Assembly: GCA_021513695.1 (NCBI GenBank)
Contig: CP084166.1
Coordinates: 2,368,001 to 2,432,000, forward strand
Length of the DNA stretch: 64,000 nt
Direction: 5' to 3'
From: Candidatus Heimdallarchaeum aukensis
GTDB lineage: Archaea > Asgardarchaeota > Heimdallarchaeia > Heimdallarchaeales > Heimdallarchaeaceae
Of this stretch, positions 2,747 to 64,000 are shown piece by piece (position 1 is the first letter of the stretch; each line of letters begins with the position of its first letter). The notes under the pieces were generated by a model, which saw nothing but the letters and a program-made list of their open reading frames with translations, had not been told where the DNA came from and did no database searches. Made by a program: the position numbers and the translations under genes.

Positions 2747-5293
2747 GTGAAATGTCCCGATTGTAGTAAAACCTTAACGATTGAAGAAAAAAGTCACACA
2801 TTTACTTTTCGTTGTCAATTTTGTGGATACTACTCAAAAATTGTTGGTGCTAAAAATGTTGAAGAAGCTTATAAGAAGACTGTGGAGAGGGCTATAGCTC
2901 AAAACAATATAATCCAAATATCAAAAAAAGAATCAGAACAACTAGTTAAAAGATTAACTCTTCAAGAGAAAATTAATCTGATTAAAAAAGGGAATGGTGA
3001 TCCTTCTAATCTCCCAAATCCCTTAGTTAAATTGTTAAGACATCCTGACTTAGAACCAGTTTACTATTTATTCTTGGAGCAAAAGTCTCCAGCTTTAGCT
3101 AAAGATTCCCTTTTTCTTCCATCTGAATTAAGTTCCTTTCTTAAGAAAAAGGGTTTTGTTCAATTATATGAATTTCAAAAACAATCGTTCAAAAAGATAA
3201 CAGAAGGAAAAAATGTAGTTATTGTAGCCCCAACTGGAACAGGTAAAACCGAGGCTTTCCTTTTTGCTATATTAACAGAAATTTGGGAATCTCATCCTCA
3301 TCCTCTATTACGAAATGGTCCTTATGCAATCTTTATCTATCCAAATAAAGCTTTAGCTAGAGATCAACAAAAGAAGATAAGCGAATATAGTTCAAAATTG
3401 GGAATAACCTGTGAAATTTTTGATGGCGATACTTCACAATCCAAAAGAAAAAAGATTTTGGAAAATCCTCCTGATATTTTAATAACAAATCCTGATATGC
3501 TACACTATCATATGCGAAAACCTAGTTTTAGGAGTCTGCTTTATCCGGTAAAGTTTGTAGTTATAGATGAAGTTCATGTGGCCGTAGGAGCATTTGGAAC
3601 AAATCTTTATTTTATAATTAGGCGATTAAGTCGATTGACAAAAAATAAATTACAATTTATTGCTGTTTCTGCCACAATAGGTAATGCCGTTGAGTTTACT
3701 TCTAAATTATTTAACAGCCCTTCTATGGATATAGTAGAAGTAACAGATGCACGAAAAGCACCTACTCATCTTATGATTGTGTATCCATATGGAACAAGCC
3801 AGTATACACTTACAGGAGACATTACTCGATTACTTGCTTCATCTGGTAGAAAAATCTTAGTTTTCCAGAATAGTCATAAAAATGCAGAAATTATTAATCT
3901 CCTTCTCAGCCAGAGAATGAAAATTGACAGCGCAGTGCATAGAGCGGGTCTCACAAAGAAATATAGAGCACAGGTAGAAAAAAGATTTAGAGATAATGAA
4001 CTAGATGTGTTAGTTTCAACGCCTACTTTAGAATTAGGAATAGATATTGGCAGTGTAGATTCTGTTGTATCTTCAATTGTTGACTTTACAAGGTTTACTC
4101 AACGATTAGGTAGAGCAGGAAGAAAAGGACAAGAATCAATAGGTATTCTTATTCTTAGGGACAATGACCCGATCTCTACCTATTATGCTTTTTACCCTGA
4201 AGACTATTTTGAAGACATAAGAAAAGGATTTATTGAACCTAAAAATGAACTCATTGCCTACTACCAAATATTATCCGCTGTGATGGATAAACCTCTAAAA
4301 GAAAATGAATTTCAAGAGTTTAAACACATTATTTTGAATCTTGTAAATGATGGTTTAGTTAAATTAGCACCAAAAGGAGAATTTCAAATAGCTGATTATT
4401 CAAAGGTTAGAAAAGTTTTGTCAGTATTTAACTTAAGAGGAATCGGTGATACTATCGTAATTGAAGATATCAATGGCAAAGAACTAGGTAGTCGTTCAAT
4501 GCCAATGGCTGCAAGAGAGTTACATCCGGGGGCAATATATTTACTAGGCGGAAAATATTATCGCTCTCTGTCCTTTCAGTATGATCCGAGATTAGGTCGT
4601 GGAAGAGTTAAAGTTCAAAATATTCCGCCGCTTAATAAAAAAACTACTGCTTTACGTTTTGCAATGCCTGAGATTATTAAAATTCATGAATTAAAGAAAA
4701 TTACTGGAACAGAAGCAATTTACTGTGATCTACGAATAACAGAAAATGTAATTGGTTATTCACTTTCTGATATCTTTACTGATGAGAATGTTGAAAACAT
4801 CCCGTTAAAAGAACCTATTCAGTATTCTTTTGTAACTAAAGGATTTATGTTTGTGATGCCAAAACCTCAAAAAATCTTCAGAAATTACCCCGATAAGCAT
4901 GAAGATGAACTAGCCACTGGCACATTTCACGCAATTGAACATGTTTTAATCGAATCAAGCGAAATGATAACTGGTGGAGGAAGTAATGAAATAGGAGGTA
5001 TTTCAATGGGACATTCTGGAGCAATTTTTGTGTATGATGGAGCTAAAGGAGGTTCTGGTCTTTCAAAGCTACTTTTTGACCGATTAGATGAAGCGCTTGA
5101 TCGTTCATTAAATATCCTTAAGAAATGTACATGTAAAACAATGGACGGTTGTCCTAGATGTACCTATAGCTATCAATGTGGAAACAATAATTTCCCACTG
5201 AACAAGTATGGTGCTATTGAATCTCTGACACTTGTTAAAAAATCTAAATTAAAAATCATTGAAGATGTGAGCGGTTATAATCCTCTGATCTAG
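2747..5293 (+). CDS. Superfamily-2 DEAD/DEAH helicase with C-terminal DUF1998/MZB cysteine cluster (COG1205, YprA/MrfA-like) and an extra N-terminal zinc ribbon
   Basis: GTG start. N-terminal CPDC..17..CQFCG ribbon. Motif I APTGTGKTEAF, motif II VIDEVH, motif III SAT, motif VI QRLGRAGRKG. C-terminal CTCKTMDGCPRCTYSYQCGNNN. Confidence 0.85.
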   Translation: MKCPDCSKTLTIEEKSHTFTFRCQFCGYYSKIVGAKNVEEAYKKTVERAIAQNNIIQISKKESEQLVKRLTLQEKINLIKKGNGDPSNLPNPLVKLLRHPDLEPVYYLFLEQKSPALAKDSLFLPSELSSFLKKKGFVQLYEFQKQSFKKITEGKNVVIVAPTGTGKTEAFLFAILTEIWESHPHPLLRNGPYAIFIYPNKALARDQQKKISEYSSKLGITCEIFDGDTSQSKRKKILENPPDILITNPDMLHYHMRKPSFRSLLYPVKFVVIDEVHVAVGAFGTNLYFIIRRLSRLTKNKLQFIAVSATIGNAVEFTSKLFNSPSMDIVEVTDARKAPTHLMIVYPYGTSQYTLTGDITRLLASSGRKILVFQNSHKNAEIINLLLSQRMKIDSAVHRAGLTKKYRAQVEKRFRDNELDVLVSTPTLELGIDIGSVDSVVSSIVDFTRFTQRLGRAGRKGQESIGILILRDNDPISTYYAFYPEDYFEDIRKGFIEPKNELIAYYQILSAVMDKPLKENEFQEFKHIILNLVNDGLVKLAPKGEFQIADYSKVRKVLSVFNLRGIGDTIVIEDINGKELGSRSMPMAARELHPGAIYLLGGKYYRSLSFQYDPRLGRGRVKVQNIPPLNKKTTALRFAMPEIIKIHELKKITGTEAIYCDLRITENVIGYSLSDIFTDENVENIPLKEPIQYSFVTKGFMFVMPKPQKIFRNYPDKHEDELATGTFHAIEHVLIESSEMITGGGSNEIGGISMGHSGAIFVYDGAKGGSGLSKLLFDRLDEALDRSLNILKKCTCKTMDGCPRCTYSYQCGNNNFPLNKYGAIESLTLVKKSKLKIIEDVSGYNPLI

Positions 5294-5376
5294 TTGTAAT
5301 ACCCTAGTAATGTTCACATCATGTGCCCATGTTATATCATTTTTTTAGGTAAACCAAGAATTGGTTCTTGATCAAC

Positions 5377-5787
5377 ATGCTATCGTCATCAAATCTTAAT
5401 GTGAAAGAGATGCTTAATATTGCTCTCGACTGTATTTTCCCAACTAGTGAATCAATAGAACCTGAAATATTAAAAGAAATCACAAAATTCTTAGAACAAC
5501 AAGAACCTCAAGCTCCAACAGAAGATGCTGAAATTGTTAGAGGTGAAATAAGGAAAGCATTAATCCACTTTAAAAATCGTCCTTATTTGTATAATTCTAG
5601 AAAGAAAATTGAGAGTCTATTACTTAAGAACGAAAATTGGAAAAAATTCATTATTGCTCCTCATTCATTTAAAGATGAACTTATTGAAGCAGGGTTATCA
5701 TCAAAAGAGATAGCATTGTTGAAATCATCTCTTGAGAATGCAGAAAACACATTAAACCTCCTAAAACATATTCCCCAACCTCACTAA
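5377..5787 (+). CDS. Hypothetical protein
   Basis: ORF track 5368..5787 begins at a TTG; the first ATG is at 5377 (MLSSSNLN). Helical-looking sequence with no motif recognised. Confidence 0.4.
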   Translation: MLSSSNLNVKEMLNIALDCIFPTSESIEPEILKEITKFLEQQEPQAPTEDAEIVRGEIRKALIHFKNRPYLYNSRKKIESLLLKNENWKKFIIAPHSFKDELIEAGLSSKEIALLKSSLENAENTLNLLKHIPQPH

Positions 5788-54567: not shown

Positions 54568-55305
54568 TCACTTGAATTTTTTTACGAGTTGTTTTAGAAT
54601 TGTTTGTATTGTTTCTATTTTTTCTTCTATTTTCTCCACTCTTTTAACAAGCTTATTGAATTCGTCAGCTGATACTTCTACTTCTCCAGAGACTGATTCC
54701 ATCATCGATTCTTTAATATCTATAATTCCAGGAGCAAGTTCTTTTTTCTTTGTTACTTTAACGTTATTTGCTTCGAGAAGTGTGTAAGCCAAGAAATCAA
54801 ACGTTTCTTGGATATTTTGTCCTGTTAATGCCGATGTTTCACTATAGTAGAAGTTTATTCCCGTTTCAGTCATTAGTCTCTGACAAAATTCTATAGCCAT
54901 TTTCTGTGATACTCTCCTATTTTCTGGAGGAAGATCGATCTTATTAGCTATTACAAAGTAAACTAGAATTCCAGAATTTGAACCTTCAATACTCTCTTCT
55001 AGCCATGTTCGTAGATTAGTCATTGTTTGTTGATCTTGGATATCAAATACCAACAAAGCAGCTATAGCTCCTTTATAAAAAGTTGACCTAACAGCTGAAT
55101 AGCTATCTTGTCCTGCAAGATCCCATATCTGAAAAGTGATGTCATTGTCTTCTACTTTTACTTTTTTTGAAGCAAAGTCAGCCCCAATTGTTTTAAGATA
55201 GTCTCCTGTAAATCCTTTTCCCATATATCTCTCTCTAATAGAGGTCTTTCCTACTGCTCCATCTCCAGCCAATACAATTTTAAAATTCCATTTTTTTCCT
55301 GTCAA
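54568..55305 (-). CDS. Rab/Ras-like small GTPase with coiled-coil C-terminal extension (paralogue of 8215..8949)
   Basis: TTG start preceded by GGTGA. G1 GDGAVGKT, switch I YLKTIGADF, G3 WDLAGQ, G4 ANKIDL, G5 ETSAL. No C-terminal Cys. Confidence 0.85.
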   Translation of the reverse strand: MTGKKWNFKIVLAGDGAVGKTSIRERYMGKGFTGDYLKTIGADFASKKVKVEDNDITFQIWDLAGQDSYSAVRSTFYKGAIAALLVFDIQDQQTMTNLRTWLEESIEGSNSGILVYFVIANKIDLPPENRRVSQKMAIEFCQRLMTETGINFYYSETSALTGQNIQETFDFLAYTLLEANNVKVTKKKELAPGIIDIKESMMESVSGEVEVSADEFNKLVKRVEKIEEKIETIQTILKQLVKKFK

Positions 55306-55309
55306 GATT

Positions 55310-55996
55310 TCACCCTTGTTGTTTGTATTTAGCTAATTCTTCTTCTAGCTCATCTATTCTTCTCTGAGCTTCAAGTAATCTCTTTTGGAATGTTTCTCCT
55401 ACTTCCTGCTGAGTTCTTTCAAAGTGTGCTTTTGCTTCTTCTAACTCTTTCCTCATTTTTTCTCTTTCCTCACGAGCTTTCTTTATTTCTTCACTCTCAC
55501 GAACTGTTTGAACAGCCTTTTTGAGCAATGTTTCCAAGTCATCTTTTGAAACATCAAAATTTGAGGAAGTAAGCATCTTTAGAGCGTTAAATTCATCAGC
55601 AGAGATTGTAGGTCTACTTTTCATTAGGTCTTCAACCTTCTCTTGTAGAGCTTTTTTCTCGATAAGTAGATCAGAAACCTGTGCTTTCAGTTGTCTATTT
55701 TCTTCACTTAATTGAGTAGAATTTTGTGTTTCAATATCAAGTGATCTTCTAAGATGTTCAATCTCATCAGAACTTTCTCCTAATTGCTTTATGTATCGAA
55801 CTAGCATAACTATATATTCACGCAAAAGAGGATGGATTAAATGCCAATATTGATGGATTTCTCGTTCAATATCAGATAATCTCGGATCTTTCATGTTTGG
55901 AGGGAGTTTTACAAAAACAGGGTTTTCAACATCAATTTGGGGATAATACTCTGGAATATAATTGTAGATTGTTTCTCCTTTATACTTTTTAAACAT
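55310..55996 (-). CDS. Coiled-coil protein co-transcribed with the GTPase
   Basis: 228 aa. The C-terminal two thirds are heptad-like and E/K/Q/L-rich. Its TGA stop lies inside the GGTGA preceding the GTPase TTG start, with a 4-nt spacer. Confidence 0.65.
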   Translation of the reverse strand: MFKKYKGETIYNYIPEYYPQIDVENPVFVKLPPNMKDPRLSDIEREIHQYWHLIHPLLREYIVMLVRYIKQLGESSDEIEHLRRSLDIETQNSTQLSEENRQLKAQVSDLLIEKKALQEKVEDLMKSRPTISADEFNALKMLTSSNFDVSKDDLETLLKKAVQTVRESEEIKKAREEREKMRKELEEAKAHFERTQQEVGETFQKRLLEAQRRIDELEEELAKYKQQG

Positions 55997-56160
55997 AGTT
56001 TAACCTCACTTTTTTAATCAATTATATGTATCAATTACATTTAATAAAAGTTTTATGTCAAAGGAAAAACTAATGAAAGTTAAATTGAGAATGTTTTTTA
56101 AAGTTAGTTAGTAATTCTAAGTAGGCCTAAATAATTTACAAATCTACGATTGTGAAAGAA

Positions 56161-57576
56161 ATGAGTGAAGAAAATAAAGAACAGTTTTTTGAGTTAGTGA
56201 AAGAGATAGATGAGATTGTTTTCCAACACATGAAAGATAAAGCTACATCAATAGAGTTTAAACAAGTCTTAAAAAAAGAAAAAAGTGATATTAAACCTAT
56301 TAATTCAATACTTGATGCAGAAAATGAGGAAACAGAGATATCATCAGTTATGGATAATATAGGTATTAATACAAAAAAGGCAAATATTCTTGAAGAAGAG
56401 CAGTTGTTATTAGAAGAAGCAGAGGAAAATAAAATATTTTTACAATTAAAGGACAAGTATCCTGACTATAATATCTATATAAAGCAGATATATTGTTCAA
56501 GTAGCTATCAAGAGGACAGAGTAATTCAGCTTTTACAAAAAGATCTAACCTCGCTCAAAGACATACGAATTAAGAAAAGTGAGATCAAGTTTTTTCCATT
56601 TTTATTGCATAATATTAAGTTTGTATTAGAAAAACCATTTTCTATTAGTTTTTACGATTATGAAATCCCTATCTATAGAACTTTACAAGAAGAAAAACTG
56701 CGTTTTTATCCAATAGGAGAATATCCTTTTGAAGAAAGAGAGAAAATTTTTGAAAATAAGTGGATTCCACTAATAAGTAGTTTGCAACACTCATTAATAA
56801 AATCAATTAATGATGGAAAGTTAGCTGAAAAGAGAGTAGAAAGAATAGATAAAAAAAATATTTCACCTGTTGATTTTAGTAAATTACAAGAATCAATCAG
56901 TGCTTCTATAGATAGTGCAAAGAAAGCTTTTTCAAATCCTAATAAAGAAAACACGTCTAATTTTGAAACATTTTGGCAGAATGAGAAACAGTTCAACAAT
57001 GCTATATTACAATTAAAAAAACAGTTAGTAAATATAGAGCATGAGTTAAAAGAAGAAGATGATAGGATAAAAGAAGAGTATCTAGAATTAAAGAAAAAAC
57101 AAGTAAAATTGAATAAAGAAGCAAAAATGTATAAGCAACTTGAAAATCAAGGAATAAAAATTGAACGAGAAAAAAAAGAAAAAGTTGCAAAGATGTTATC
57201 TGAATTTCAAAGCAAAAAAGAATCAGTTCAGAAAAAACTCTTTGAATTTAAGAAGAAAAAGAACTTGTTGGAGCAACTGACAGAGCTTATTAAAAATAAG
57301 AATATGACTGATTTTGAAAAGAACTTTAGAATGCTCTTCAAGAAAGATGTTGACAATGCATTAGAAGCAATTAAAACAAGCATCGAAGAGCAAGGATCTA
57401 ATATAAATTTAGTTGAAAGTAACCATCTTGAAAAAAATATTAGGTTACATGTTGTTTGGGTTCCAATATTCTTAATAACCTTCAAAGCATCACAAGAGGA
57501 ACGTAAAATAGATGGAAAAGCATTTTATTCAGATTTTGATAATAAAGTCTTCATTATTTCTCCTACCACAAGTTAG
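56161..57576 (+). CDS. Hypothetical protein with long central coiled coil
   Basis: Track ORF 56152 starts at GTG; the first ATG is at 56161 (MSEENKEQ). The K/E-rich central region is flanked by beta-like N- and C-terminal parts. The antisense ORFs are spurious. Confidence 0.55.
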   Translation: MSEENKEQFFELVKEIDEIVFQHMKDKATSIEFKQVLKKEKSDIKPINSILDAENEETEISSVMDNIGINTKKANILEEEQLLLEEAEENKIFLQLKDKYPDYNIYIKQIYCSSSYQEDRVIQLLQKDLTSLKDIRIKKSEIKFFPFLLHNIKFVLEKPFSISFYDYEIPIYRTLQEEKLRFYPIGEYPFEEREKIFENKWIPLISSLQHSLIKSINDGKLAEKRVERIDKKNISPVDFSKLQESISASIDSAKKAFSNPNKENTSNFETFWQNEKQFNNAILQLKKQLVNIEHELKEEDDRIKEEYLELKKKQVKLNKEAKMYKQLENQGIKIEREKKEKVAKMLSEFQSKKESVQKKLFEFKKKKNLLEQLTELIKNKNMTDFEKNFRMLFKKDVDNALEAIKTSIEEQGSNINLVESNHLEKNIRLHVVWVPIFLITFKASQEERKIDGKAFYSDFDNKVFIISPTTS

Positions 57577-57817
57577 ACAATAGTGACTAGATAGCTTTCT
57601 GATTCATTGATTTTTTCTGGATATGTTAGTAATAAGGCTCAAGAGACTAAAACGCAGATATTTCTGAATTCATATTTGATTAAACTTTCGTTCTATTTAT
57701 TAAAAAAATAACAAATTCTTGTGTAAATTAACCATGTGTATATATAATTCAACGTTCTTATCTGAATCTAAAAGTTTAAGAGTTTCTAAACTAGATATTT
57801 TCGTAGACAAAGTGAAA

Positions 57818-58420
57818 ATGATGAAAACGCTTTTCGATAAATCAAAATTCGATATGAAAGTAGAAGAAATTATGACAAAAGGGGTAATTTCTGTTGCCCC
57901 AAAAGCAAGTGCAGAAGTTTGTGCCAAACTAATGATCGATAATAAGATTGGCTCTGTCGTAGTAATAGACAGTAGTAAAAAAATTCTAGGTATCATTACC
58001 AAAGAAAATCTAATTAAACATGTTATAGCACAAAATGCAAGTCCAGAAGAAGTAAAAGCTTTTGAGATAATGTCTGCGCCAGTAATTACAGCTAGAGAGA
58101 CAATAACTATTTCAGAAGCTATGCGAAAAATGTTTAAAGAGAATATCCGCCACTTGGTGATTACTGATTCACAAGGATTTGTAATAGGAATATGTACAGA
58201 TACAGATCTGTTTAAAGTAGTTCCCACTTTAATTCTGATAGAAAAAGAATATTTGCAACTGATGAGAAATGAAGAGGAAGATACTAAAAATGAAGAATTA
58301 GTATCAGGATATTGTGATGACTGTGGAGAATATTCAGATTCACTAATGGAAATTGATGGCCAATTTAAGTGCCCAAGATGTGTCCCAGAAGATATAAACA
58401 TTATGCCACCTGAAATATAG
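57818..58420 (+). CDS. CBS-pair protein with C-terminal zinc ribbon
   Basis: Two CBS motifs (VEEIMTKGVISV..IGSVVVIDSSKKILGIIT; AFEIMSAPVIT..IRHLVITDSQGFVIGICT). C-terminal CDDCG..CPRC. ATG 57818 is preferred over track start 57719; a TATA-like tatatataat lies at about 57742. Confidence 0.7.
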   Translation: MMKTLFDKSKFDMKVEEIMTKGVISVAPKASAEVCAKLMIDNKIGSVVVIDSSKKILGIITKENLIKHVIAQNASPEEVKAFEIMSAPVITARETITISEAMRKMFKENIRHLVITDSQGFVIGICTDTDLFKVVPTLILIEKEYLQLMRNEEEDTKNEELVSGYCDDCGEYSDSLMEIDGQFKCPRCVPEDINIMPPEI

Positions 58421-58447
58421 TCAAAAAATATTCTCTTAAGGGTAGAA

Positions 58448-58930
58448 ATGAAATTCTATGTTGATGCGATGTTTGGAAATCTGTCAAGATTTTTAAGGGT
58501 TTTAGGTTACGATTGCTTGCTACGTTCCAATACTCAAAATACAGATGATTATTTTTGTAAGGTTATAGAAGAAAATAGGATAATCATAACTCGCTCTAGG
58601 GTTCTTTATAACCAAGCTCGCAAAAGAGATATTAAAGCCATTTTCATTAATAAAGAAGGAATTGTAAATATCTTGTGTGAACTGAAAAGGAAAATAAATA
58701 TCAACCTTACTTGTGACCCTAATAATTCCCGTTGTTCAGATTGCAATGGTTTATTAGTTAAAACTGATAAAAACCTTATAAAAAAAGAAGTTAATAGTGG
58801 AACTTTTGAGCACTTTGAAGAGTTCTGGAAATGTAAAAGTTGTGGGAAAATTTATTGGGAAGGAGCTCATTGGGCTGATATAAGGAGAAAAATAAAACAA
58901 GTAAAAGAGTGTGTTGGAAATGAAAATTGA
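58448..58930 (+). CDS. Mut7-C (DUF82) PIN-like RNase domain protein with C-terminal zinc ribbon
   Basis: MKFYVDAMFGNLSRFLRVLGYD N-terminus, typical of PF01927. C-terminal CSDCNG...CKSCGKIYWEGAHW. Confidence 0.7.
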   Translation: MKFYVDAMFGNLSRFLRVLGYDCLLRSNTQNTDDYFCKVIEENRIIITRSRVLYNQARKRDIKAIFINKEGIVNILCELKRKININLTCDPNNSRCSDCNGLLVKTDKNLIKKEVNSGTFEHFEEFWKCKSCGKIYWEGAHWADIRRKIKQVKECVGNEN

Positions 58931-59534
58931 ATTTGAGACAGGAGAATACCTTGTGAAACTAGCTAGAAAAGCAGGAGAAAGTTGGGTTAAGTATAATAAA
59001 GCTATTGACCCTATAGAACCCATTCCTGAGCAAGCAAAAATGAAAACAGGAGCTTTTGTAACAGTAAAAAAGTATAAATTTACTTTAGAAAGCCTAAGAG
59101 GATGTATCGGTTACGTAGAAGGCATTGCTCCTTTATATGAAGAAGTGATAATGCTTGCAAAATCTGCAACACAAGAAGATCCCAGATTTCCCCCAGTAAA
59201 ACCAGATGAGTTGTCAAATTTGCTTTTTGAAGTAACTATAATGACTGTACCAAAAATAATCAATTATAACTCAATTGAGGAATTAATAAGTCAAATAAAG
59301 ATAGGGAGGGATGGATTAATAGTAGAAAAAGGGTTTAACAGAGGACTTCTCCTACCTCAAGTCCCAGTAGAGCAAAATTGGTCTGTTGAAGAATTCTTGT
59401 CTTACACATGTAGAAAAGCTTATCTCCCTACTGATGCTTGGAAAAAAATGGATCTGAAAATTAAGAAATTTCAGGGTGTAATATTCAAGGAGATAGTTCC
59501 TGAAGGAAAAATTGAACAGGAAGTTATTCAATAA
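58920..59534 (+). CDS. AMMECR1 domain protein
   Basis: LRGCIGY signature and RDGLIVEKG..GLLLPQV. The start at ATG 58920 (or 58911) overlaps the 3' end of the Mut7-C gene. Confidence 0.8.
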   Translation: MKIEFETGEYLVKLARKAGESWVKYNKAIDPIEPIPEQAKMKTGAFVTVKKYKFTLESLRGCIGYVEGIAPLYEEVIMLAKSATQEDPRFPPVKPDELSNLLFEVTIMTVPKIINYNSIEELISQIKIGRDGLIVEKGFNRGLLLPQVPVEQNWSVEEFLSYTCRKAYLPTDAWKKMDLKIKKFQGVIFKEIVPEGKIEQEVIQ

Positions 59535-60459
59535 TTTTAAGAATTTTATCAATCTTTTTGAAATCTGGCCTTTCAGCTATGTCAGGAACAAAAATTGGTA
59601 TAGTAACTGGAAGCTTTTGTTCAATTTGGTAAAATAGATTTTTTGACATAACTATTGCTTTAGAATTACTACGTGAATAAAGAGAAAGTATCTCTTCTAC
59701 TCTATCTTTTTGACTTTCAATAAATAGCAAATGTTGTTCCTTAGAACTTTTAGATTGGAGGTCTAATATCAATTCAATAAAATTAAGAAATGTTTTGTTA
59801 AAATCATCCCGAGGTTTGAAAGAACAGATTGTAGTATTTGCTCCACGTTGATACATTTTCAGGATATTAGCTAAATCTTCTTTTTTTCCTTCAACTAGAA
59901 TTAATACTCTTCCTTGGCAACCTACAGGTAATCCTCCTAAACCTTCTTCTTTTGCATGAAACAGGTATGCATCTTTTTCTCTAACCTCAATGAACAGTGT
60001 ATATTCTGGAGAAGTTAAATCCACTTTTAGTTGTTTGCTAGAACATTTTTCTAAAATAAACGATCCAATTTCAGCTGCAAGTTCCATGCTGGTGAAAGGG
60101 TGAGTTCCTACTCTTTTTACTCTTACTGCAAAAGAAGAGTGGGTCTGAATTTCATTAAGTAGCTGCTTTTCAATAACATTTTTGATTTCCTCTAATTCTG
60201 AGGGACATTTTATTGTTTTACTTATACTTTTGACTCCTGGAACAAAAGCACTAACAATTCTTTCAGCTTTTTCCAACTCGTCTGTTGACACAAAAATTCT
60301 GCTATATTGGTTTGAAACCCTAAAATCTTGAATGTTGAAATAGTTTAAACAATATCTAATGTGATTTAATAGAATAGATGTAAACCATTGTCTAGTTTTT
60401 TTACTTTTAATTCCAATTTCAGAGAAACGTACTAGCAGTAAGTGTGGATAGTCATTCAT
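59524..60459 (-). CDS. ThiI-like NFLD+THUMP protein with degenerate PP-loop domain
   Basis: LLLVRFSEIGIKSKKTRQWF (ThiI N-terminus pattern). GGLPVGCQGRVLILVEGKKEDLA sits where ThiI has GGLPVG..G.vl.LlSGGiDSpVA. Only 311 aa. Confidence 0.6.
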   Translation of the reverse strand: MNDYPHLLLVRFSEIGIKSKKTRQWFTSILLNHIRYCLNYFNIQDFRVSNQYSRIFVSTDELEKAERIVSAFVPGVKSISKTIKCPSELEEIKNVIEKQLLNEIQTHSSFAVRVKRVGTHPFTSMELAAEIGSFILEKCSSKQLKVDLTSPEYTLFIEVREKDAYLFHAKEEGLGGLPVGCQGRVLILVEGKKEDLANILKMYQRGANTTICSFKPRDDFNKTFLNFIELILDLQSKSSKEQHLLFIESQKDRVEEILSLYSRSNSKAIVMSKNLFYQIEQKLPVTIPIFVPDIAERPDFKKIDKILKIIE

Positions 60460-60507
60460 TAGTTTTACCTAGAATGAAGGAAGAAACGAAGAATATAAGA
60501 ATAACTA

Positions 60508-60765
60508 TTATTCATTAAAGAAATCTATGCCCTCGATGAATCTTTCTCTTCTCTCTTCTTTTTCTGCTTCGCTAATTTCTATTTCTTCTTCCTCGATTAT
60601 GACATCACCTAATTCACTAGATTTGTGTTCAACTTCTTCTTGTATTTCGTATTTTGAAGTATCGTCGATATCTTTTTCAAACTTACACTTAGGGCATATA
60701 AGAATGCGTTTTTTACCCTTCTTTGCAGGGATTAACATTTTTCCGCAATTTTCACAGAATTCCAC
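60508..60765 (-). CDS. TFS/Rpb9 N-terminal-type zinc ribbon protein with acidic tail
   Basis: MEFCENCGKMLIPAKKGKKRILICPKCKFE resembles the N-terminal ribbon of TFS/RpoM. No second (TFIIS-type) ribbon. The C-terminal half is E/D-rich. Confidence 0.45.
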   Translation of the reverse strand: MEFCENCGKMLIPAKKGKKRILICPKCKFEKDIDDTSKYEIQEEVEHKSSELGDVIIEEEEIEISEAEKEERRERFIEGIDFFNE

Positions 60766-60956
60766 GTGCTACTCACTTTTTTATCTTGTGATTTTTGGTA
60801 TGTCGCTTTTCACTTTTTAACTTTTCTCTTTAAAACTTTTTTAGCAGATTCTTTATATTTTCTTGTAAATTTTCTAACAATTTTGTAAAATAACAATTCC
60901 AATAACTGCAAAGAGATAAACTTTTGAACTGCTTTTTTTTTACTTATCTGAAAAGA

Positions 60957-62000
60957 ATGCCTAATAAAACTTCTCCTAGAAAAGATGAGCATCTAAAGAT
61001 ATGCAATGAGTTAGACGTAAATTATGATCTAATTTCTCCTGGTTTTGAGAAAGTAAGCATCTCTGATGAGCTTTCAAACTTCTCAGATGTTACTCCTGAT
61101 ATGGTTAAACTTGAAACTTCACTATTTGGAAAAAAAATAGATTTTCCAGTGATTATCTCAGGAATAACTGGAGGTTCAGAAGAAGGAAAAAAAATTAACA
61201 AATCTATAGCTAAAGTTTGTAATGAATTTAATATCGCCATGGGTGTAGGAAGTCAGAGAGCAGCAATTGAAGATCCACAATTGGTATCTACTTATCAAGT
61301 TCGAGAGTATGCTCCTAATATTCCTTTAATTGGGAATCTTGGGGTAGCTCAACTCTTAGATAAAACAAATGGAGAAAAGGTAAAACTTGCTGTAGAAATG
61401 ATTGATGCAGATGCTATAGCTTTGCACATAAATCCTTTACAAGAATATGTACAATATGAAGGAGACAAACATTTTACTAACATGATTCCATCTTTAAGGC
61501 ATATAGTTCAAAACAGCAGTTTTCCTATAATAATAAAAGGTGTTGGTTTCGGATTTAGTTTTAAGGATATGCAAATAATTGGTAAAATAGGCGCAAAATA
61601 TGTAGACATTGCTGGTGCAGGAGGAACAAATTGGACGAAAATAGAACTTTATAGACATAAAAAAGAATTTGGTTTTTCTAATGATTTTGTAAATCTGGGC
61701 ATCTCAACAGTAGAAACACTAAGAAACGCCGTACTTGTGCAACAGACTTATCCTTACAAAATTATTGCATCTGGAGGAATATGGTCAGGAATAAATGCTG
61801 TAAAAGCTTTGCTTTTAGGTGCTGATTACGTGGGTTTAGCTCTACCAATCGTAAAAGCTTTCTATCATAAAGGAGAAGAAGGAATAAAATCTTTTCTTTC
61901 AACTTTCATAACTGAAATGAAAATAGTTTTAGCTATGATGGGTATTAGAGACTTAAGTCAACTAAATAAAAGAAAAAAGAAATTCTTATCCCACCAGTAA
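60957..62000 (+). CDS. fni: Isopentenyl-diphosphate delta-isomerase, type 2 (FMN-dependent)
   Basis: RKDEHLKIC, ISGITGG, MGVGSQRAA, AGAGGTNW and ASGGI motifs. ATG 60957 is preferred over the TTG track start at 60924. Confidence 0.85.
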   Translation: MPNKTSPRKDEHLKICNELDVNYDLISPGFEKVSISDELSNFSDVTPDMVKLETSLFGKKIDFPVIISGITGGSEEGKKINKSIAKVCNEFNIAMGVGSQRAAIEDPQLVSTYQVREYAPNIPLIGNLGVAQLLDKTNGEKVKLAVEMIDADAIALHINPLQEYVQYEGDKHFTNMIPSLRHIVQNSSFPIIIKGVGFGFSFKDMQIIGKIGAKYVDIAGAGGTNWTKIELYRHKKEFGFSNDFVNLGISTVETLRNAVLVQQTYPYKIIASGGIWSGINAVKALLLGADYVGLALPIVKAFYHKGEEGIKSFLSTFITEMKIVLAMMGIRDLSQLNKRKKKFLSHQ

Positions 62001-62139
62001 ATAGGCTTTAAAGTTAGGAATCAGCCTAACTATGATTCGTCATTGTCTTTTTAGACTCAGCAATGCCTTGCTCATCACTTAGGATCAAATGATTTTTGGA
62101 GTATATCTTTCTTCCTATCTCTCCCTTATTTTAAAAAAA

Positions 62140-63072
62140 TTAAAATAGATTAGTACTTAACATTAATGGTGGAATAATAATTAGTACATTGGCGGCTAAT
62201 ATTGCTGCATAAGCAAATTTATTCCAGTTAAGAATTTTTTTTCCGTCTAGCTGCCATAAGGGAATGCAATTAAAAAGCGCAATAAGTCCGTTGAATAGAG
62301 TTATTTTCAAAAAGATATTTTCAAATATAGGTGAAAAAGTCAAAGGTAGAATTGCAAATTTGATAAGTAAACCAATAATTAGACTAACTCCTCCAATAAT
62401 TGCATTTATAGCTGGACCAGCTAAAGCTACAAGTCCGCCTTCTTTTTTAGTCATTTTTCGTCTAGGATCTAAGGGAACAATTGCTACAAAGCCAGGAACA
62501 ATTAAACCTATTTGGAAAATTAAAGTAAATAATGTGAATAGAATACCTTTTGTCCATAGAACATACCTTGCAAATTGTCCTTTTTTAATTGCCACAAATT
62601 TATGAGCTAGTTCATGAGGTAGAAAAGCTGTACCAATAAGGATTCCTGAAATAATAAATCCCCAGTAGTTTCTTTCGAAGATAAATTCTGATATCCCAAA
62701 TACAAGTATAATTAGTCCAAAACCAAAAATCAGGTCTAAAGCTTCTGAACCTAAAGAAAAAATATCAGGAGAAGCTAACAATCTTCTAGTTATTAATTCT
62801 TTTTTCGATTTATTGTCTAAACGAGATAATTGGTCATAGTATGCTTGTTGGGCTTGTTTTTGAACATATTCTGCAGCTTTTTGTATTCCCGTCATTATAG
62901 CAGAAGTTGCTTGCGCTACTGTCTCTGCTTGTTCTGGGAAAGATTGACCTAAAAAGATGGGGCATTGATGATTTTGGGGATCACGATGCTCCTCACAGAA
63001 AGAGTGGTGACAATATCTACAATAAAAGAGTATATCTTCATCTCTATTACAGTTAGGGTAATCGCATTTCAT
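62140..63072 (-). CDS. AN1-type zinc finger fused to M50 (site-2 protease-like) membrane metalloprotease
   Basis: C8-x9-C-x2-C-x4-C-x2-H-x5-H-x-C matches the AN1 spacing (CNRDEDILFYCRYCHHSFCEEHRDPQNHQC). HELAHKF (HExxH) lies in a TM helix. About 6 TM helices. Confidence 0.75.
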   Translation of the reverse strand: MKCDYPNCNRDEDILFYCRYCHHSFCEEHRDPQNHQCPIFLGQSFPEQAETVAQATSAIMTGIQKAAEYVQKQAQQAYYDQLSRLDNKSKKELITRRLLASPDIFSLGSEALDLIFGFGLIILVFGISEFIFERNYWGFIISGILIGTAFLPHELAHKFVAIKKGQFARYVLWTKGILFTLFTLIFQIGLIVPGFVAIVPLDPRRKMTKKEGGLVALAGPAINAIIGGVSLIIGLLIKFAILPLTFSPIFENIFLKITLFNGLIALFNCIPLWQLDGKKILNWNKFAYAAILAANVLIIIPPLMLSTNLF

Positions 63073-63255
63073 TAGTTAAACTCAATTTAACATAGGCATT
63101 TTAGAACCTATTCATTTAGCAGAAATTTTTCAATGTTCAAATCTAAAATTTTTGAATGAAATAGAATTTTAAAAAATTATAACTGTTTTATTCCAATAAA
63201 ACTTTTAAGGTAGAATCATCTAACATTTTTTAACAACTCAATTTAGGTGTGAAAA

Positions 63256-64000
63256 TGAAACCCGATATTGAAATCTCACAAGAAAAAGCAAAAGATATGA
63301 AAGATATTAGAGAAATTGTAAAAAAAGTAGGTTTAACTGAAGACGATCTTCAGCTTTACGGTAAGTATATAGCCAAGTTAAGTCAAGAGGCCATTTCTCG
63401 CATTCTTAACTCAGATAAAGAAGAAGGAAAATTAATTTTCGTTACAGCTATGACTGCCTCAAAAGCAGGAGAAGGAAAGACAGTAACCAGTATAGGTCTG
63501 TCTCAAGCTTTCGCTAAACTAGGAAAAAATGTAATGTTTGCCATTAGAGAACCATCAATGGGACCAACTTTTGGAATAAAAGGAGGAGCAACTGGTGGAG
63601 GATATTCACAAGTCTTCCCAATGGTTGATATTGATCTGCACTTTACAGGAGATCTTCATGCAATTACATCAGCTCACAATTTACTCGCTGCACTGATTGA
63701 TAATCACATAACGAAAGGTAATAAACTAAACATTGATCCTACTAAGGTCACTTGGCCAAGAGCTTTGGATGTAAATGACAGAGCATTAAGAAACATCATT
63801 ACTGGGTTGGGAGGAAGAAGATTAGGCGGAGATATTCGTAATACTGGTTTTGTAATTACTGCAGCTAGTGAAATAATGGCTATTTTGGCACTTTCAATGG
63901 ATATGAAAGAATTGAAAGAAAGGCTAGGTAATATTTTAATTGGTTATACTTACGATGATAAGCCAGTATATGCAAGAGATCTAAAAGCTGTTGGCGCAAT
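63256..64000 (+). CDS. fhs: Formate--tetrahydrofolate ligase (3'-truncated by the window end)
   Basis: Not in the ORF track because no stop is reached. My translation from ATG 63256 (AGGTG upstream) gives [78 protein letters not shown]. Confidence 0.85.

Follow-up and report, generated by a model that had tools for sequence, protein, structure and literature searches.

The stretch of DNA analysed here, the window, comprises 64,000 nucleotides of the genome of Candidatus Heimdallarchaeum aukensis (contig CP084166.1, positions 2,368,001 to 2,432,000; G+C content 32%). Near its end, on the minus strand, lies a complete gene for a 310-aa protein in which an N-terminal AN1-type zinc finger is fused to an intramembrane metalloprotease core of the M50, or site-2 protease (S2P), family (62140..63072, from the ATG start to the stop codon inclusive, by the list of open reading frames (ORFs) and Pfam). 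Both the gene and the fusion are confirmed as real. It belongs to a widespread but uncharacterised archaeal family, of which it is an ordinary, conserved and apparently housekeeping representative.

Reality of the AN1-M50 fusion

An in-frame TAA is found 6 nt 5' of the ATG, so the start cannot be moved upstream and the N-terminus is fixed. The two domains follow each other in one uninterrupted frame, with neither a stop codon nor a frameshift between them. Both were proposed in the initial annotation of this DNA, and both score above the gathering scores of their Pfam models: zf-AN1 (PF01428) over residues 3-38 (E 1.6e-8, 34.9 bits against a gathering score of 27.9) and Peptidase_M50 (PF02163; E 4.3e-8, 33.2 bits against 27.2). 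NCBIfam gave only sub-threshold matches for this protein. Its identity is 98% to protein P0001 and 94% to the protein of Ca. Heimdallarchaeum endolithica PR6. A homologue search of 5.8 billion proteins returned about 40 full-length clusters in which both Pfam domains are present and the identity is 49-64%; all the named ones come from metagenome-assembled genomes (MAGs) of Heimdallarchaeota. When one genome was scanned for each GTDB species, the gene was present in 27 species genomes, including that of PR6; one of these loci is broken by a contig end, and one of the genomes is labelled Thorarchaeota and another Promethearchaeati. That an annotation or assembly error, such as a wrong start or a frameshift, joined two separate genes, a concern voiced with the initial annotation, is next to impossible given the uninterrupted frame, the upstream stop and the recurrence of a single conserved ORF in the 27 species genomes and about 40 clusters.

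The AN1 finger

The AN1 double zinc finger occupies residues 3-38 (62959..63066, on the minus strand like all features of this gene), as delimited by the Pfam match and by ligand columns in an alignment of 32 full-length homologues (49-64% identity). Its eight ligands, all invariant in the alignment, read C3-x4-C8-x9-C18-x2-C21-x4-C26-x2-H29-x5-H35-x-C37, that is, C, C, C, C followed by C, H, H, C. The AN1 spacing had initially been recognised from C8 onward, where the match is indeed exact; C3 is a further ligand that had been overlooked, and the first pair, C3-x4-C8, completes the set of eight. Judged from this pattern, the six cysteines and two histidines would hold two zinc ions. A regular-expression scan of the 64-kb window in six frames found the AN1 ligand pattern at this gene only. 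Two phenylalanines, F16 and F25, are also invariant in the 32 homologues. It is a trait of AN1 fingers that a conserved aromatic residue before the penultimate ligand cysteine packs between the two zinc sites (PMC5035049), and F25, which directly precedes the penultimate ligand C26, has this place in the window protein.

In the AlphaFold2 (AF2) model of the protein, the predicted finger has the AN1 fold. By Foldseek it matches the Cuz1 finger (5ij4; TM 0.74, rmsd 1.3 A, 44 columns) and also those of ZFAND2B (1x4v) and ZFAND1 (1wfe), with a probability of 1.00. A mere generic zinc ribbon, named at the outset as the assignment that might score better, was rejected for the N-terminal domain. AN1 is the sole zinc-finger model above threshold, no zinc-ribbon model ranks above it in the Pfam scan, and the predicted fold fits AN1 structures; the next zinc-finger model, zf-RING_5, stays below threshold (E 0.055, 13.9 bits against 27.9).

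The M50 core and its topology

The six-helix M50/S2P membrane core spans residues 110-305 (62158..62745). The catalytic zinc-binding motif HELAH (H153-E154-x-x-H157; 62602..62616), read directly from the sequence, is placed at the cytoplasmic end of the second transmembrane helix (TM2). The longer string HELAHKF (residues 153-159) falls within the predicted helix 136-163, which bears out its original placement inside a membrane helix. The second S2P signature, NCIPLWQLDG (N268...D276-G277; 62242..62271), would supply the third zinc ligand, an aspartate. H153, E154 and H157, as well as N268, P271, D276 and G277, are found in 32 of 32 members of the alignment, and two further elements of the core, PGFV (193-196) and AGPxxN (218-223), are invariant as well. 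Strands 166-170 and 196-200 form a beta-hairpin. With its catalytic and zinc-ligand residues intact, the protein appears to be a catalytically competent, minimal zinc metalloprotease of the site-2-protease type.

The core equals the stand-alone archaeal M50 proteins of about 200 aa. It is preceded by, and slightly overlaps, a conserved juxtamembrane segment (residues 94-113; 62734..62793), in which I94, L98, S101, S106, G108, E110 and D113 are invariant or nearly so. This segment corresponds to the 'FS-x-x-E' N-terminus of stand-alone M50 homologues, of which P0044, P0062 and P0066 start there. Between it and the finger lies a cytoplasmic linker (residues 39-93; 62794..62958) that varies in length and sequence across the alignment and is Q-rich or of low complexity in homologues. 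In the AF2 model (mean pLDDT 82.8), the small finger at the N-terminus is followed by a helical linker of low confidence and then by six membrane helices and the beta-hairpin. The linker is predicted as a long helix (52-83), with pLDDT of 48-73 over residues 41-80, and a further helix (87-100). The membrane part of the model matches the S2P of M. jannaschii (MjS2P) in Foldseek. Lysine and arginine are abundant before TM1, after HExxH and in 200-223 and 272-286, and are absent from the loop 243-248 and the C-terminal tail. Combined with the established topology of S2Ps, this pattern assigns the finger, like the active-site motifs, to the cytoplasmic face, and thus supports the cytoplasmic N-terminus that had been proposed for the finger.

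The window protein shares its six-helix core, HExxH and NxxPxxxxDG with MjS2P (MJ0392, PDB 3B4R) and SpoIVFB (PDB 8VJL), of group M50B. A PDZ or CBS domain is a typical, though not obligatory, accessory of the characterised M50 groups. MjS2P and SpoIVFB have C-terminal CBS domains as a cytoplasmic regulatory module. In the window protein, where Pfam found neither PDZ nor CBS at E values up to 10, the accessory position is filled by an AN1 finger at the N-terminus. In RseP-type S2Ps, accessory PDZ domains filter substrates; these domains are periplasmic and lie between membrane helices, whereas the accessory domain of the window protein is cytoplasmic and terminal. In Haloferax, the S2P accessory domains known are CBS and PDZ (PMC9263693).

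An AN1 finger has been described on an intramembrane protease of another kind. RhoII of Haloferax volcanii (HVO_0727) is a rhomboid of six helices whose N-terminus bears an AN1 finger (PMC4343526). RhoII and the window protein are alike in being archaeal intramembrane proteases with a cytoplasmic AN1 finger at the N-terminus (PMC4343526), but the catalytic domain of RhoII is a serine rhomboid (S54), unrelated to M50. The phenotype of the rhoII knock-out concerns S-layer glycosylation and motility.

A large archaeal family

In two distant matches of the homologue search, P0045 and P0046, the M50 core comes first and is followed by a C-terminal AN1 finger. A search with P0045 returned 1270 proteins, and both Pfam domains are present in 117 of the best 120. 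The names of these proteins point to Promethearchaeota, Bathyarchaeia or Bathyarchaeota, and Nitrososphaerales. By motif scan, about 105 clusters have AN1 at residue ~3, HExxH at ~128 and DG at ~238, and in ten clusters the finger is near residue 290, behind a seventh membrane helix. The Heimdall family and a Bathyarchaeia member are colinear over their full length (hhalign probability 99.9%, 35% identity over 256 columns). This full-length colinear homology and the wide spread therefore place the window gene in a large archaeal AN1-S2P family. Its members are uncharacterised and go in the databases by the names 'AN1-type zinc finger domain-containing protein', 'Zn-dependent protease' and 'site-2 protease family protein'. 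The finger had initially been called eukaryote-like, a label that does not hold, since AN1 combined with M50 is widespread in Bathyarchaeia, Nitrososphaerales, Promethearchaeota and Heimdallarchaeota, and AN1 combined with rhomboid occurs in haloarchaea (PMC4343526).

The Heimdall proteins and those of Bathyarchaeia, Nitrososphaerales and Promethearchaeota share the two domains, the cytoplasmic placement of the finger, and HExxH and LDG motifs that are intact. They differ in the first ligand pair, which is C-x4-C in Heimdall and C-x2-C in the other archaeal AN1-M50 proteins, and in the residues before the third cysteine, 'ILFY' in the former and 'FLPF' in the latter. The linker of the Heimdall proteins is also about 30-40 residues longer and Q-rich.

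The C-terminal-finger proteins belong to Promethearchaeota of the Loki type (P0045/P0046 and P0296-P0302; loci L030:1406-2419 and L035:2611-3591). Here the domain order is reversed, and one added membrane helix is predicted to return the chain to the cytoplasm. Since the added helix keeps the relocated finger cytoplasmic, it can be argued that the combination of AN1 with M50 is under selection. In a neighbour-joining tree of the M50 cores, which is crude, has long branches and carries no support values, the C-terminal-finger group falls inside the N-terminal-AN1 clade. As weak support, the tree fits a move of the finger within a single lineage. Full-text searches of the literature found no paper on an AN1-S2P fusion. 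Burroughs, Iyer and Aravind are said to have noted in 2011 that prokaryotic B-box, AN1 and LIM domains partner diverse membrane-associated peptidases.

A second family that keeps the finger

A second, Heimdall-specific family of AN1-bearing membrane proteins is homologous to the AN1-M50 family over the full length (hhalign probability 99.2%). It comprises 27 clusters, all from Asgard-labelled MAGs. The finger is almost invariant and is the best-conserved part of these proteins. HExxH and DG are jointly kept in 7 of the 27 clusters and jointly lost in the other 20. Pfam no longer recognises M50 in them, and the best membrane match of the AF2 model is MjS2P, with a weak score. Most members look like pseudoproteases that have retained the finger. 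In three Heimdall loci, the second AN1-membrane protein is encoded beyond the gene for formate-tetrahydrofolate ligase (FTHFS), which is the divergent neighbour of the AN1-M50 gene (L001:3084-4094 and L017:3092-4075, both on the plus strand, and L026:5745-6674, on the minus strand). The second paralogue of the present genome would lie past position 64000, just outside the window.

Relation to eukaryotic AN1 proteins

With profiles of both Heimdall families, the best matches among solved structures are the fingers of ZFAND1, ZFAND2B and Cuz1; the fingers of ZFAND5, ZFAND6 and plant SAP proteins score lower in the same searches. By profile and fold, the closest AN1 subtype is thus that of ZFAND1, ZFAND2A/B (AIRAP, AIRAP-L) and yeast Cuz1. 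ZFAND1 and ZFAND2B have the C-x4-C first pair of the window finger, and the phenylalanine before the penultimate cysteine is conserved in the Cuz1 and ZFAND fingers as it is here. When an AN1 profile was run against 1.84 billion representative proteins, 3797 matches were obtained; a ZFAND2 C2H2 domain is found in 48, a ZFAND1 UBL domain in 26 and a UBX domain in 2 of the best 147, a list biased to two-finger proteins because finger scores add up. P0149, P0156 and P0174 are membrane proteins with multiple AN1 fingers (two to four) and a predicted two to four membrane helices, and P0174 has HExxH. One of the 147 scanned AN1 proteins matches DUF3267 (putative zincin peptidase) and one is SprT-like.

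Outside the finger, the eukaryotic proteins are unlike the window protein: they are soluble or prenyl-anchored, lack a protease domain and combine AN1 with UBL, UIM or C2H2 modules. In the window protein, Pfam found no UBL, UBX, UIM, VIM or ZFAND2-type C2H2 module. The Cuz1 subfamily has a surface motif of no assigned function, LDFLP, between the first and second ligand pairs (PMC5035049). The window protein reads D-E-D-I-L-F-Y before C18, and only the phenylalanine aligns with LDFLP. In the same region, the paralogue family has S-L-P-F-K, and the Bathyarchaeia and Promethearchaeota proteins have F-L-P-F-R.

Genomic context

The intergenic region upstream of the gene (63073..63248, by sequence reading) separates it from the divergent FTHFS gene on the plus strand (assigned by Pfam; start at ~63249/63255) and presumably holds the promoters of both. 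The divergent arrangement recurs in 23 related loci. The convergent neighbour downstream encodes a type-2 isopentenyl diphosphate (IPP) isomerase (FMN_dh; fni), so that both flanking genes are on the opposite strand. Beyond fni come genes for an RPB9-like zinc-ribbon protein, a THUMP/ThiI-like protein, AMMECR1 and Mut7-C. The order FTHFS / AN1-M50 / fni / Zn ribbon / THUMP-ThiI-like / AMMECR1 / Mut7-C (window positions 55000-64000 and loci L001-L027) is kept in more than 20 Heimdallarchaeota species whose proteins are only 50-55% identical. It is a lineage synteny, not an operon. The zinc-ribbon gene (60508-60765, minus strand) encodes an 85-aa protein limited to the N-terminal zinc ribbon of RPB9/RNAP-M type (Pfam 30.9 bits) and a very acidic tail, and it adjoins fni in 24 related loci. 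A plus-strand ORF of 113 aa (62264..62605) is a shadow of the AN1-M50 gene, and its recurrence in related loci is due only to its overlap with this conserved gene. No site-1 protease was found near the Heimdall loci. Neither tRNA genes nor Rfam matches at gathering thresholds were found anywhere in the 64-kb window, and a scan for bacterial promoters and terminators is uninformative for an archaeon.

In the other lineages the neighbours are different ones. Bathyarchaeia AN1-M50 loci adjoin Mre11/Rad50 and ribosomal protein S10, and some of them also have a small HTH_45 gene. This winged-helix gene (88-91 aa) lies directly 3' on the same strand at L032:5844-6110, L033:5844-6110, L039:5865-6131 and L040:5865-6131, and is present also at L041:411-686; it is missing from other close Bathyarchaeia loci. 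The neighbourhood of the Promethearchaeota locus gave no functional clue. In a Nitrososphaerales MAG (GCA_038830385.1; L034:261-6573), the AN1-M50 gene (5001-5774) sits between PCMT and PAC2 genes on the same strand, and a Cdc48 gene (261-2453) lies 2.5 kb upstream, also on the same strand. This is a single locus that may be a coincidence, and we take it as a lead only.

Possible roles of the finger

The reading that we prefer, with moderate confidence, is that the protein is an active intramembrane protease whose cytoplasmic AN1 finger docks a substrate or a partner next to the lateral gate. A variable linker of about 70 residues connects this finger with the first membrane helix. In the MjS2P structure, reportedly solved by Feng et al. 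in 2007, TM1 and TM6 are said to form the lateral substrate gate. The tether would run to TM1 in the Heimdall proteins and, via one further helix, to TM6 in those of Promethearchaeota. Proteins or peptides could then dock on the finger where the gate opens to the cytoplasm, and the finger would capture a membrane-protein substrate, or an adaptor, by its cytoplasmic part. Such capture would select what enters the active site, which is expected to open toward the cytoplasm. The protease would cut within or near the membrane-spanning segment, and a cytoplasmic fragment would be released. The presence of AN1 on the rhomboid RhoII, and its outlasting of catalysis in the paralogues, suggest that the finger provides an interaction function. 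That the protein is proteolytically active, that its finger docks or selects, and what kind of substrate it acts on are our inferences; regulated intramembrane proteolysis and a recruitment role, put forward in the initial annotation, would likewise be readings of the sequence.

Several points weigh against docking at the gate. The AF2 output, in which the linker has low pLDDT, gives no inter-domain confidence and so does not fix where the finger lies relative to the gate, and the gate-helix argument rests on the MjS2P structure. The gene is monocistronic and stands amid housekeeping genes (FTHFS, IPP isomerase, RPB9-like ribbon, THUMP), the neighbourhoods in other lineages have no functional theme in common, and no substrate, partner or operon link was found in the gene neighbourhoods. 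Moreover, docking of a substrate looks the same in these data as docking of downstream machinery. The latter is the basis of a conceivable though doubtful alternative, by analogy with eukaryotes, in which the finger would recruit Cdc48, PAN or the 20S proteasome, so that the cleaved fragments are extracted and degraded, and would be an archaeal forerunner of the ZFAND-type adaptors. Profile searches of solved structures put the Heimdall finger nearest to the ZFAND1/ZFAND2B/Cuz1 subtype. In eukaryotes, ZFAND1, ZFAND2A/B and Cuz1 are associated with p97/Cdc48 and the proteasome, and the Cuz1 finger is required for proteasome binding in a zinc-dependent manner (PMC5035049). However, the LDFLP motif of the Cuz1 subfamily is only partly present (EDILFY), and the window protein has none of the UBL, UBX, UIM or VIM motifs sought with Pfam. 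The ZFAND2, ZFAND1 and UBX domains counted among the best 147 AN1-profile matches speak for recruitment, but they come from the list with the two-finger bias. That AN1 is found on two unrelated families of intramembrane proteases fits a generic downstream service better than recognition of specific substrates, and paralogues without catalysis retain the finger. The genes for PCMT, PAC2 and Cdc48 around the AN1-M50 gene in Nitrososphaerales would also fit, but they are seen at that one locus, and the Bathyarchaeia, Promethearchaeota and Heimdall loci show none of this.

It is very unlikely, in our view, that the finger is instead a sensor, in which oxidation, loss of zinc or a metalloid such as arsenite unfolds the finger and switches the protease, coupling proteolysis to redox or metal stress. 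Six cysteines and two histidines offer a chemistry sensitive to oxidants and thiophilic metals, and the finger would be tethered to a gate helix. Its relatives Cuz1, AIRAP and AIRAP-L are stress proteins induced by arsenite, but the response in eukaryotes has been shown for expression and not for the finger itself, and the Cuz1 finger is unusually rigid and stable (PMC5035049). The Heimdall neighbourhoods contain no redox or arsenic genes, and a thioredoxin/reductase pair is near one Bathyarchaeota locus only.

An unlikely but broader scenario would make AN1 an ancient archaeal module that couples intramembrane proteases (M50 in TACK/Asgard, rhomboid in haloarchaea) to Cdc48 and the proteasome. 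ZFAND1, ZFAND2 and Cuz1 would then descend from detached Asgard fingers, and the Heimdall pseudoprotease paralogues would be receptors that hand membrane proteins over, comparable to the derlins and iRhoms among rhomboids.

Implications

The interest of these findings lies in the AN1-S2P family and its pseudoprotease paralogues rather than in this locus. A finger that is fused to two unrelated families of intramembrane proteases, and is kept after catalysis is lost, serves as a 'Rosetta stone': the two fusions, together with retention of the finger without catalysis, argue that AN1 works with proteolysis at membranes. Among archaeal fingers, those of Heimdall are most closely related to the ZFAND1/2/Cuz1 type and therefore offer a tractable entry point to what AN1 fingers bind and to the origin of the eukaryotic stress adaptors.
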